Shown here piece after piece: positions 29,951 through 32,381 of a stretch of 64,000 nucleotides of DNA (positions are counted from its first letter, which is position 1; each line of letters begins with the position of its first letter). The translations under genes were made by a program, and so were the position numbers. The notes under the pieces are model-generated. The model did no database searches and had not been told where the DNA came from. It worked only from the letters and a program-made list of their open reading frames with translations. This DNA comes from a phage, in the NCBI GenBank assembly GCA_012416205.1, contig GCA_012416205.1_3033.2; one strand, written 5' to 3'.

Positions 29951-30531
29951 TATTCACCACAGAATTCGTTGATATTTTCCCAGTTTAACTTATTCAAGTT
30001 TTTCTTAGGAACATTAAACACTTCAATACCCGCATTTCGCAGAATATCATCCCAGCCAGGTTTATTTTTATCATATGTTTCACAATAAACCAGCTTTTTA
30101 ATACCAGATTGAGCTATCGCTTTTGCACAATCTGGGCAAGGAGAAAGTGTTACATACATAGTAGCACCTTCAATAGAAGAACCATTTCGTGCAGCAAACA
30201 AAATTGCATTTAGTTCAGCATGAATTTCATTTTTAGACGACCATTCCGAGTGAGCGCTACGGTGTTCTTTCGCCAAGACAAAGCGATCAGTTGAACCAAA
30301 TGATACGCATTCAGGCTTATGGCCTTGAATGATAGTATGTTTAGGCTTATTCAGCAACCAACCTTGCTCAGCAGCATAATCACAACAGTTCACACCACCA
30401 GCAGGTGAACCATTATATCCGGTAGAAATAATACGTCCATTCTTTTCAATTACTGCTCCTACCTTCCAGGAGCAACATTTTGATTCTTGTGATACTAAAT
30501 ATGCAATTTGAAGTACTGTACTCGCTTTCAT
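29950..30531 (-). CDS. cd: dCMP deaminase
   Basis: 193 aa; cytidine/dCMP deaminase zinc motifs HAELNAI and PCPDCAKAI. Confidence 0.92.
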   Translation of the reverse strand: MKASTVLQIAYLVSQESKCCSWKVGAVIEKNGRIISTGYNGSPAGGVNCCDYAAEQGWLLNKPKHTIIQGHKPECVSFGSTDRFVLAKEHRSAHSEWSSKNEIHAELNAILFAARNGSSIEGATMYVTLSPCPDCAKAIAQSGIKKLVYCETYDKNKPGWDDILRNAGIEVFNVPKKNLNKLNWENINEFCGE

Positions 30532-30866
30532 TTCATAATCACCAGATAAGCAGATTTAGCAGTTTCAACACGATAAATTTCGTGACGAAGTTTAGTTATA
30601 CTTTTAATAACAGAACTAATTATATTCTGCCCATCTTTAAAGCGGTTTTTCTTATCAATAAAAATTGCACCAGCCATCTTTTTGTGAAGCTCAACTGGAT
30701 ACTTCGTCACAATAATAGCATCATACACAGAAGGATGAATACTATTCACTAGAGTGTCATTCATTAAAGTTATTCTAATGAACTGTGCTGTGTCAGAGTC
30801 AAGCGCTCTATGATCGCCAGTATCATTTTCAAGACAATTATCAATTATATCAGTTAAATTCATCAT
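30528..30866 (-). CDS. Hypothetical protein (cd.1 position)
   Basis: 112 aa ORF. Confidence 0.5.
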   Translation of the reverse strand: MMNLTDIIDNCLENDTGDHRALDSDTAQFIRITLMNDTLVNSIHPSVYDAIIVTKYPVELHKKMAGAIFIDKKNRFKDGQNIISSVIKSITKLRHEIYRVETAKSAYLVIMK

Positions 30867-31099
30867 AGTACGCCATACACCCTTTGTGCTTCAACTAATC
30901 CATCAAAATCCAATTTGAGATGTGTTATTTGGTCACCATCACCTGGATTCACAATTACTAATACTGAACGAGGAGTTTCGGTAATAACACGAACCGATGT
31001 TTCTGGAAATCGTTCAGAAACCTTATTTACCAATTCCTGAGCAAATAGTTTAACTTTTTCTTGGAATTCTTTAACAGTAATCGGTTTTTCACTTAGCAT
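30863..31099 (-). CDS. Hypothetical protein (cd.2 position)
   Basis: 78 aa ORF. Confidence 0.5.
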   Translation of the reverse strand: MLSEKPITVKEFQEKVKLFAQELVNKVSERFPETSVRVITETPRSVLVIVNPGDGDQITHLKLDFDGLVEAQRVYGVL

Positions 31100-31620
31100 G
31101 TTGATCCCAGCTCCTTACTTTCAACGTTTTTAACTAATTTGACAGAAACTAATTCAGCATCTTGAGTAATCATTACCGGGCCTTCTTCATACTCTTCAAG
31201 ATATTCTAGAGCTTTCTTTTTAGCTTCTTCCTTCGTATCAGTTTGAGCATAGATATAGAACATACAACCAGTAATACCTACTACTTTCCACTTAATTTCT
31301 TTATCAGTTTTAATTTCAAATTTACTGATAGAGTCATCTTTTTGAACTTCTTCGAAAAAATAATATTCTGACATATAAGTAATTGAAAATAACGGGCTAT
31401 CTTTATAAGATTCGCCCATTACATCAACAGCTTTATACCAGCAGTCATCAATTTCACGTTTAATGCTAATAACATTTTTCGCAGAATCTATTTTTACTTT
31501 AAATGAATTTTCCCCAATAAACTTGGCAATTCGTTTATTAGCCCCGCAAGTTTCATTAAAAATATCTTTATATCCAGCTTTAAAGCGATAAACCTTATCT
31601 TCTTCAAACCATTTGCTCAT
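31093..31620 (-). CDS. Hypothetical protein (cd.3 position)
   Basis: 175 aa ORF. Confidence 0.5.
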   Translation of the reverse strand: MSKWFEEDKVYRFKAGYKDIFNETCGANKRIAKFIGENSFKVKIDSAKNVISIKREIDDCWYKAVDVMGESYKDSPLFSITYMSEYYFFEEVQKDDSISKFEIKTDKEIKWKVVGITGCMFYIYAQTDTKEEAKKKALEYLEEYEEGPVMITQDAELVSVKLVKNVESKELGSTC

Positions 31621-31682
31621 TTCAATTTCCTCATTTGTTTTGGTAGAGCTATAATATCACAACTCTACCGTAAAGTAAACTG

Positions 31683-31958
31683 TTAAATTGCCTTGAATTC
31701 TGATGTCTGTGATTCAAAACGAATATCGCCTTTGATGACTAGCTCAGCATCAAGACCGAATACGACAATGATATGTGCGGAACCTGGATACAGCGTAATG
31801 GCAATAGAATCAACCTGGTCTGGAAGCAAAGTATTCAATACATGAGTCACTTGAGCATGAATTCGAAGCTCGGCTGCGTTATCAAGCTTTTCAAACATAT
31901 TATTAGCGATAATTTGGCTAAACACTACTTCTACGATTTTAGAATAAGTCGGAAACAT
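31683..31958 (-). CDS. Hypothetical protein (cd.4 position)
   Basis: 91 aa ORF. Confidence 0.5.
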   Translation of the reverse strand: MFPTYSKIVEVVFSQIIANNMFEKLDNAAELRIHAQVTHVLNTLLPDQVDSIAITLYPGSAHIIVVFGLDAELVIKGDIRFESQTSEFKAI

Positions 31959-31960
31959 AT

Positions 31961-32161
31961 TTACCTCACATAATTTTCTTCAAGCCAATCAATAACATCC
32001 AACGCATTATCAAAAGTTGAACCATCTACTTTATCTTCTGTTTCATAATCAAGAACATCTAAGCCTACTCTTCCATCAACAATAGGCCATAAACAAAATA
32101 GATATTTCTTTTCTTTTTCAATTTTATCACAAAGACGATAAATCTTTTCTATATTATTCAT
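31961..32161 (-). CDS. Hypothetical protein (cd.5 position)
   Basis: 66 aa ORF. Confidence 0.45.
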   Translation of the reverse strand: MNNIEKIYRLCDKIEKEKKYLFCLWPIVDGRVGLDVLDYETEDKVDGSTFDNALDVIDWLEENYVR

Positions 32162-32381
32162 AAGTTTTCCATGGTAAAGGCAGTTTAGTTTTCTTTACTG
32201 TTAGTTCAATATCAGGATTCTTTTCTCTTAATTTAAGGCATTCCTCCCAAGCTCTGATTTCACTAGTGAATACACAAAATTGCCCATTACTAGTACCAAC
32301 TAAACCACTATTTACAATAACAATAGACCAAGTTTCATGATGCCACGCCATTAAAAATCTCCCGAAGCAACTTGCCAGCAT
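32154..32381 (-). CDS. Hypothetical small protein downstream of pseT
   Basis: 75 aa ORF overlapping the pseT start region; start uncertain. Confidence 0.4.

Follow-up and report, generated by a model that had tools for sequence, protein, structure and literature searches.

The block of small genes between cd and pseT in this phage is an accessory early-gene cluster of the T4 type, running from pseT toward cd on the minus strand in the order cd.5, cd.4, cd.3, a 175-aa gene, cd.2, and cd.1. In other words, the block is ordinary and already catalogued as T4 genes: judged by sequence, five of its six genes are the orthologues of T4 cd.1–cd.5, and the sixth, the 175-aa gene, is absent from T4. That sixth gene encodes, we propose with moderate confidence, a two-domain protein paralogous to Frd.2 and GoF, a member of the GoF/MotB.1/Frd.2 family of Tevenvirinae early proteins with an LSm-like fold; this link is the one new assignment here, made for a gene that previously had none. 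The window (the whole 64,000-nt stretch of DNA that was analyzed) is a Tequatrovirus (T4-like) genome with 99.6% nucleotide identity here to phage JLBYU31, and it was matched gene by gene to annotated T4 and to phage vB_SsoM_113. An earlier note on this DNA had taken the small ORFs of two intervals, cd–pseT and frd–gene 32, to be uncharacterized; the long-catalogued T4 genes cd.1–cd.5 and frd.1–frd.3 went unrecognized there.

The cd–pseT interval (30528–32381) contains six genes, all on the minus strand, and an early-promoter-like site:

30528..30866, minus strand: cd.1 orthologue, 112 aa
30863..31099, minus strand: cd.2 orthologue, 78 aa; Pfam DUF7320 (3.4e-34) and phrog_1504; 36 loci
31093..31620, minus strand: 175-aa gene of the RB32ORF214c type; GoF/Frd.2-like N-terminal domain, residues ~1–95
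31642..31680, minus strand: early-promoter-like site and hairpin, within the 62-bp gap that precedes the 175-aa gene in the direction of transcription
31683..31958, minus strand: cd.3 orthologue, 91 aa; Pfam DUF7355 (1.1e-32) and phrog_1695; 36 loci
31961..32161, minus strand: cd.4 orthologue, 66 aa, acidic (pI 4.35); phrog_2360 (8e-42); 22 loci
32154..32381, minus strand: cd.5 orthologue, 75 aa if translation starts at the first ATG; Pfam T4_Y13H (7.2e-32); 16 loci

The ORFs lie on the minus strand at the coordinates that the earlier note gave, but where it counted seven we count six; apart from these, a single 37-aa ORF nested in another frame is all that the block's minus strand offers at a length of 30 aa or more. 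The packing is tight, although less uniform than had been claimed: instead of 1- to 4-bp overlaps throughout, there are overlaps of 4–31 bp and gaps of 2 and 62 bp. The stop codon of cd.1 and the start codon of cd are merged in a 4-bp overlap (ATGA), the cd.1 start overlaps the cd.2 stop by another 4 bp, and cd.2 and the 175-aa ORF share 7 bp; then come the 62-bp gap, with a promoter within it, before cd.3, a 2-bp gap between cd.3 and cd.4, and an 8-bp overlap of cd.4 with cd.5. The overlap of cd.5 with pseT is 31 bp from the first ATG or 1 bp if the start is Met11; this alternative start (at 32351, giving 65 aa from 32154–32351) is used in one annotated record, and the T4_Y13H match begins at residue 12.

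The site in the 62-bp gap consists of GTTTAC (31680–31675), an 18-nt spacer, and a TG-extended −10 element, TATTAT (31656–31651); a promoter scan reads the same site with TTTACT as its first hexamer and a 17-nt spacer. It is nearly identical to the T4 cd.2–cd.3 gap, where NC_000866 annotates the early promoter Pe133295. A 9-bp hairpin (arms 31669–31661 and 31650–31642) overlaps the promoter-like site and is maintained in other T4-like phages, where three compensatory pairs preserve it. The cluster has two sources of transcripts: read-through from upstream and this conserved early promoter.

The frd–gene 32 interval (43206–44679) contains the five ORFs that had been reported there:

43206..43451, minus strand: 81-aa acidic ORF (pI 4.05), absent from T4, lying between frd and frd.1; phrog_3183 (4.4e-43)
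43462..43704, minus strand: frd.1 orthologue, 80 aa from ATG; Pfam DUF5417 (3.4e-33) and phrog_1254
43762..44064, minus strand: 100-aa ORF (86 aa from a later start), not in T4; phrog_4423 (1.4e-49), match from residue 15
44024..44404, minus strand: frd.2 orthologue, 126 aa; Pfam FRD2 (5.9e-33) and phrog_622 (1.3e-39)
44449..44679, minus strand: frd.3 orthologue, 76 aa, acidic (pI 4.05); Pfam Phage_FRD3 (1.4e-37)

For the 81-aa ORF, the PHROG match is the only one, with no Pfam family found. The 100-aa ORF probably starts at Met15 (44022) and encodes 86 aa; the choice of start was judged with the Shine–Dalgarno sequence and its spacing. As a whole, the two intervals resemble T4 cd.1–cd.5 (T4p218–T4p222) and frd.1–frd.3 (T4p240–T4p242) in order, strand, neighbors, early promoter, and Pfam/PHROG families. 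They differ in that this phage adds the 175-aa gene, the 81-aa ORF, and the 100-aa ORF, the first of these inserted exactly between the promoter and cd.2.

Are frames this short really genes? All six in the cd–pseT interval and all five in the frd–32 interval are genuine genes, encoding small soluble proteins. One might imagine that some are chance open frames in AT-rich DNA, given that they are short (66–112 aa) and that two of them (cd.5 and the 100-aa ORF) have ambiguous starts, but we find this idea scarcely credible. T4 Cd.1–Cd.5, Frd.2, and Frd.3 were found by proteomics, each with early RNA (PMC9697503 supplement), which refutes it for those genes, and Cd.2 is recorded with both early RNA and early protein (PMC9697503 supplement). 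Each ORF, moreover, is kept open across genera at 30–70% amino-acid identity, family E-values run from 1e-32 to 1e-53, and a Shine–Dalgarno sequence precedes most starts. The view that the ORFs carry no recognizable motifs holds for function, since all the families matched are of unknown function, but not for family membership: all eleven match a PHROG family and six match a Pfam family (DUF7320, DUF7355, T4_Y13H, DUF5417, FRD2, and Phage_FRD3). In the part of the CRISPRi-ART supplement available to us, the PHROGs given for T4 cd.1–cd.5 are those of the window (phrog_2063, 1504, 1695, 2360, and 2430), and the guides against T4 cd.1–cd.5 are all scored “Not Fit” on laboratory E. coli. We infer that the cluster is conditionally useful, not essential.

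What, then, might these proteins do? One answer lies in the neighborhood: the small ORFs, interleaved and cotranscribed with the genes of the nucleotide-precursor machinery (cd, frd, td, nrdAB, and pseT), might encode its accessory subunits or its regulators. All of them do lie between genes for nucleotide or nucleic-acid enzymes, and cd.1 is translationally coupled to cd through the 4-bp overlap. Most loci have cd.1 adjoining cd, and this includes Aeromonas phages in which cd.1 lies downstream of cd instead of upstream; because cd.1 stays beside cd even in rearranged gene orders, Cd.1 could partner with dCMP deaminase or the nucleotide-synthesis complex, a candidacy drawn entirely from gene neighborhood. 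Extended to the whole set of ORFs, the idea strikes us as quite improbable. The evidence for it is all of this one kind, and T4 early regions generally mix enzymes with unrelated small ORFs. Aeromonas phages in which the interval has shrunk to one unrelated ORF nevertheless retain cd and pseT. No nucleotide-binding or catalytic motif was found with Pfam or NCBIfam, and NCBIfam gave no match at all for the ten ORFs searched (all but frd.1).

The 175-aa gene offers a different lead. In its structure model, an N-terminal domain (residues ~1–95) is joined by a low-confidence linker (pLDDT <50 at residues 95–104) to a separate α/β C-terminal domain of β-β-α-β form (residues ~111–153). The N-terminal domain aligns with GoF at hhalign probabilities of 81–88% (E 3e-6 to 1e-5; shuffled controls ≤0.8%), and the family aligns with Frd.2 at 84–86% (E ~6e-6; HMM E 2.9e-4) when the alignments are free of Frd.2, so that the comparison is not circular. 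(A value of 99.1% against Frd.2 was set aside, since Frd.2 was itself among the sequences of that iterated alignment and the match was circular.) PHROG matches agree, with phrog_622 (Frd.2) at 2.1e-6 and phrog_2980 (goF) at 7.6e-4. When the 175-aa protein was compared directly with Frd.2 by BLASTP, no significant match resulted, and a comparison with MotB.1 gave no sequence-profile signal. An exhaustive phmmer search of 1.84 billion representatives returned only near-identical fragments and one spurious match, to a protein with 17 identical Ig-like repeats, where many weak matches add up to the score.

With an N-terminal domain homologous to GoF and Frd.2, the 175-aa protein is therefore placed, with moderate confidence, in the GoF/MotB.1/Frd.2 family of LSm-like (RNA-chaperone-like) Tevenvirinae early proteins (Kim et al. 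2025, PMC12152347). It shares with them early expression and an architecture in which a flexible linker connects a ~90-aa N-terminal domain to a C-terminal domain unrelated to those of the others; it differs in being larger (the T4 members are 119–141 aa) and in having a β-β-α-β C-terminal domain peculiar to itself. Since the gene is absent from T4, it is not among the three named members, and it may fall in an unnamed subfamily of the published tree (PMC12152347). The single experimental lead for this family is mRNA stability: the mutant GoF(D25Y) alone stabilizes an mRNA, and RNA binding is reported for no wild-type member (PMC12152347). The LSm-like assignment points to RNA-related modulation rather than counter-defense. 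As for phenotypes within the family, those recorded for frd.2 conflict: the T4 CRISPRi-ART screen scores it as “Fit”, alone among the genes of unknown function, and T4 frd.2 amber mutants plate normally, with no defect (PMC12152347).

Beyond the family profiles, the searches for function were sparing in their rewards. Structure prediction, a check that the earlier note had proposed, gave no informative fold match for the two models made, of Cd.1 and of the 175-aa protein. Cd.1 is modeled as helices with an SH3-like barrel and has no informative structural neighbor; the 175-aa model has FeoA and IdeR as weak structural neighbors, a point of resemblance to the GoF/MotB.1/Frd.2 family, and a likeness of its C-terminal domain to ClpS was too weak a fold match for use. 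A BFVD search returned uncharacterized phage proteins only, and our search of the literature on the DUF names and the cd.x genes found nothing specific. We also considered and rejected a DinI-like fold for cd.2. The Pfam match to DinI (E = 0.048) is below the gathering score, a weak Pfam match appears in 6 of 21 family members (best 0.012), and the cd.2 family, when aligned with E. coli DinI by hhalign, reached a probability of 0.25%. By eye, cd.3 and frd.3 had also looked DinI-like, but their profiles align with that of cd.2 at no more than 3.5%.

The full explanation to which we incline, and which we hold to be somewhat probable, is that of a T4 accessory early cluster with an LSm-like 175-aa gene, host-takeover binders, and roles connected with RNA or Cd. 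These proteins, which have no catalytic motifs, would most likely be stoichiometric binders that tune host takeover; for the 175-aa protein and Frd.2, the target would be RNA, reached via the LSm-like N-terminal domain, and the effect a change in mRNA stability or expression.

How variable are these genes from phage to phage? The intervals had been called hypervariable, and for gene content this is borne out: content varies between genera, and even within Tequatrovirus some phages have the 175-aa gene and others lack it. One and the same near search matched the 175-aa gene in 303 phage records (at ≥90% nucleotide identity) versus 498 for cd.3–cd.4. For shared genes the term does not fit. The cd genes are 93–99% identical to those of T4, shared genes among close Tequatrovirus relatives are 93–100% identical, and cd.1, cd.2, and cd.3 are present in 36–37 of ~45 T4-like loci (16–37 loci for the cd ORFs as a whole). 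The window, T4, and many IMG/VR loci all show the order cd.5-cd.4-cd.3-(175 aa)-cd.2-cd.1, with position and orientation between pseT and cd conserved. Divergence is another matter, as the small genes diverge at approximately two to three times the rate of the flanking enzymes Cd and PseT; for the 175-aa gene, identity falls to ~34% where that of PseT is 88%.

Such rapid divergence and shifting content are what one might expect if at least one ORF encoded a counter-defense protein, inhibiting an anti-phage system that some natural hosts possess and laboratory strains lack. Dmd, Arn, IPI*, Acb1, and Acb2 are counter-defense proteins from small T4 early genes, and the present ORFs resemble them in being small, early, dispensable on laboratory hosts (as far as the part of the CRISPRi-ART supplement at hand goes), and located in accessory-gene clusters. 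Several products are also very acidic (Cd.4, Frd.3, and the 81-aa ORF), and the neighbor pseT belongs to a known RNA-repair counter-measure (T4 rnlA annotation). Against this, similarity to solved structures was not found (a PDB sequence search with all eleven proteins concatenated gave no match), nor was similarity to the models of PADLOC, which describe defense rather than anti-defense: ten of the eleven ORFs (all but frd.1) gave no match at E ≤ 0.01 beyond a chance-level one of the 81-aa ORF to Cas8b (0.0087). The order of cd.1, cd.2, and cd.3 is maintained across genera infecting different hosts, a pattern more in keeping with a general role than with an arms race against particular hosts. 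In Mosigvirus AV110, a screen of 45 early ORFs found six growth-inhibiting proteins (gp94, 135, 204, 208, 214, and 263); the cd.x homologues, placed by position only at ~36–37 kb and roughly genes 58–63, would not be among them. Finally, the only gene that could be assigned to a family leads toward RNA, not defense. Early expression, dispensability of the T4 genes on laboratory E. coli, faster divergence, and gain and loss between genera do agree with what host-interaction genes would show, yet nothing found here ties any of the genes to counter-defense.

We regard counter-defense as unlikely. Its more specific forms we also consider doubtful: the 175-aa gene, which is polymorphic and evolves fastest, might be a host-specific takeover or counter-defense factor, contacting RNA via the LSm-like domain and a host protein via the C-terminal domain, or the acidic Cd.4, Frd.3, or 81-aa product might be a nucleic-acid mimic blocking a defense nuclease. 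To our knowledge, no phenotype on any defense system is known for cd.1–cd.5 or frd.1–frd.3. If either form were true, one or more uncharacterized anti-defense genes would reside in the two intervals.

The present value of the analysis is modest: the block is mapped to named T4 genes, the 175-aa gene is tied to frd.2, and Cd.1 becomes a candidate partner of dCMP deaminase. If a role in counter-defense or in RNA control proved true, it would lengthen what is still a short list of T4 early genes whose roles are known and would help explain why these small genes have been retained in hundreds of T4-like phages.

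The window is a Tequatrovirus genome; its nucleotides 30000-33000 match 670 phage records and are 99.6% identical to Escherichia phage JLBYU31, the nearest phage there. The minus strand carries every gene of both flagged intervals, and we assigned names against the annotated records of Shigella phage vB_SsoM_113 and T4.

Genes of the cd-pseT interval and its borders (window coordinates, strand, feature)
29950-30531, minus, cd, one border of the interval
30528-30866, minus, cd.1, 112 aa
30863-31099, minus, cd.2, 78 aa
31093-31620, minus, RB32ORF214c-type gene, 175 aa
31683-31958, minus, cd.3, 91 aa
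31961-32161, minus, cd.4, 66 aa
32154-32381, minus, cd.5, 75 aa
32351-33259, minus, pseT, the other border

The earlier note had counted seven small ORFs here, overlapping by 1-4 bp; the ORF listing gives six that are not nested, and their packing is tight without being uniform, with overlaps of 4, 4, 7 and 8 bp and gaps of 2 and 62 bp. The first ATG of cd.5 gives a 31-bp overlap with pseT; its Pfam match begins at residue 12, and a start at Met11 is annotated in another record. All five ORFs proposed between frd and gene 32 are there (an 81-aa ORF, frd.1, a 100-aa ORF that is probably 86 aa from Met15, frd.2 and frd.3). Apart from the count and the looser spacing, then, the observation was largely correct, and its objects are long-catalogued T4 genes. 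Just outside, between pseT and pseT.1, a 106-aa ORF (33256-33576, minus; RB32ORF217c in vB_SsoM_113) has no T4 counterpart and so is another presence/absence gene.

All eleven ORFs are genes. They had been described as lacking recognisable motifs; every one matches a PHROG family (E 1e-36 to 1e-53) and six match Pfam, although the function of each family is indeed unknown. Iterated profiles run against 7,387 ORFs of 75 T4-like loci (a local database) found homologues of cd.1 in 37 loci, cd.2 and cd.3 in 36 each, cd.4 in 22 and cd.5 in 16, and the order cd5-cd4-cd3-(175 aa)-cd2-cd1 is constant wherever these genes are present. Most starts have a Shine-Dalgarno sequence. Time-resolved proteomics of T4 detects Cd.1-Cd.5, Frd.2 and Frd.3, all with early RNA, the proteins being classed as early (Cd.2, Frd.2, Frd.3), middle (Cd.1, Cd.3, Cd.4) or late (Cd.5) (PMC9697503 supplement). 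In the portion of the CRISPRi-ART supplement consulted, T4 guides against cd.1-cd.5 are all “Not Fit.” These small proteins are thereby shown to be real, expressed early and dispensable.

Are the intervals hypervariable, as was claimed? Only in part. Gene content does shift between genera, whereas shared proteins are 93-100% identical within Tequatrovirus. At a nucleotide identity of at least 90% (near search), the 175-aa gene has matches in 303 records versus 498 for cd.3-cd.4, searched in the same way. Dhakavirus-like loci carry a 184-aa homologue just 32-35% identical to the 175-aa protein, Mosigvirus-like loci have a 330-aa DAHP-synthase-like gene in its place, and Aeromonas phages have one ORF of ~80 aa in the cd-pseT interval. 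Divergence of the small genes outpaces that of the flanking enzymes about two- to threefold: in comparisons with PseT at 88% and Cd at 75% identity, Cd.2 is at ~70%, Cd.4 at 57%, Cd.1 at 45-54%, Cd.3 at 44% and the 175-aa protein at ~34%. The frd-32 interval is the more variable in nucleotides (at least 80% covered in 332 of 615 records, mostly at 90-95% identity). Its nearest phage, over 43150-44830, is FriedrichZschokke (99.9%), and this difference between the intervals is consistent with mosaic recombination among Tequatroviruses.

The gene carrying the DAHP synthase annotation (phospho-2-dehydro-3-deoxyheptonate aldolase; 330-338 aa) occurs in Mosigvirus-like phages and certain others of T4 type. 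It lies immediately upstream of cd in the comparison loci L003 (30567-31559), L019 and L076 (1059-2051; AV110), and between cd.2 and cd.1 in L033 and L034, and resembles an auxiliary metabolic gene that would serve aromatic amino-acid synthesis. In MZ501098.1 (PaulHMueller; 37849-38092) the match to the 175-aa gene is split in two at 52% coverage over a putative homing endonuclease, which suggests an endonuclease insertion within the gene. The 114-aa ENA protein P0004, on a 644-bp contig, has a gp59-like N-terminus (PF08993) followed by a piece of the 175-aa protein and is probably a chimera from assembly or gene calling.

A counter-defence role, which the earlier note raised, is compatible with these small genes and fits their dispensability, rapid divergence and presence/absence pattern, but nothing supports it directly, and in a screen of 45 early ORFs of Mosigvirus AV110 the six growth inhibitors are, judged by genome position only, apparently not cd.x homologues. 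As a prior it is reasonable, but it does not amount to a finding. A PDB sequence search gave zero matches, and a PADLOC and NCBIfam scan of ten of the eleven ORFs (all save frd.1) found nothing. A weak Pfam DinI match of Cd.2 was lost on family-wide scanning and profile comparison. No paralogy was found among cd.1-cd.5, frd.1, frd.3 and the two extra ORFs; no product has a membrane-like segment, and several are acidic.

The sole new point concerns the 175-aa gene, which T4 lacks. Its product weakly matches phrog_622 (the T4 Frd.2 family, according to the CRISPRi-ART supplement) and phrog_2980 (annotated goF), and its iterated family profile recovers Frd.2 from the window, T4 and two other phages. 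That profile had absorbed Frd.2, and we rebuilt it from Frd.2-free rounds before comparison. With hhalign the Frd.2-free profile matches the Frd.2 family at 84-86% probability (E ~6e-6, 80-95 columns) and T4 GoF at 81-88% (E 3e-6 to 1e-5, first 41-43 residues), against at most 0.8% for 30 shuffled GoF sequences; the corresponding HMM matches the window's Frd.2 at E 2.9e-4. Kim et al. 2025 (PMC12152347) described a family matching this pattern, the LSm-like GoF/MotB.1/Frd.2 proteins, in which a flexible linker leads to variable C-terminal domains. On these profile matches, the most fitting reading of the 175-aa gene is as an additional member of that published family, within its GoF-Frd.2 branch, and we hold with moderate confidence that an LSm-like N-terminal domain is common to its product and Frd.2. 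Both flagged intervals would thus be linked by paralogy. Searching BFVD with the 175-aa model returned 26 uncharacterised proteins from T4-like and other large enterobacterial myoviruses. Other genera have additional members 2-4 kb past cd; Yersinia- and Klebsiella-type T4-like phages (L021-L035) carry one or two more paralogues downstream of cd, as at L025:11184-11720 and 12184-12780 and at L023:11157-11678 and 12079-12621, which makes this a family with several copies in a genome.

In the 62-bp gap 5′ of this gene, an 18-nt spacer separates GTTTAC from a TG-extended TATTAT (a promoter scan reads TTTACT and 17 nt). The gap aligns at nearly every base with its T4 equivalent between cd.2 and cd.3, to which the T4 record assigns early promoter Pe133295. 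There, this promoter and ribosome-binding site lead directly into cd.2, so that the 175-aa gene represents a clean insertion or deletion at this junction. A 9-bp hairpin, GGTAGAGTT / AGCTCTACC (31642-31669, minus), surrounds the -10 element; three compensatory pairs maintain its stem in Dhakavirus-like and Mosigvirus-like loci, and 96.8% of its cells are paired versus 21-56% with slid partners. Possible roles are to mark the end of the upstream RNA or affect that transcript's stability, or to control the promoter.

What might these proteins do? We would expect binders rather than enzymes. Cd.1, translationally coupled to cd, may work with dCMP deaminase, to judge by gene neighbourhood only. 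In Aeromonas T4-like phages the order is reversed and adjacency retained, a cd.1 homologue lying directly downstream, not upstream, of cd (L005:27603-27917, L042:7754-8071, L039:7754-8071); the profile search first picked it up at E 1.4e-4, when the profile contained no Aeromonas sequences. A 210-aa ORF in one IMG/VR genome (L014:6566-7198), matching both the cd.1 (1.6e-22) and cd (7.3e-77) profiles, appears to fuse cd.1 with cd, unless its start is called too far upstream. For the LSm-like branch, a gene 41 reporter mRNA is stabilised by the GoF(D25Y) mutant only (PMC12152347), and CRISPRi-ART scored frd.2 as the single “Fit” gene among T4 genes of unknown function; the members of the branch here, the 175-aa protein and Frd.2, would act on RNA.
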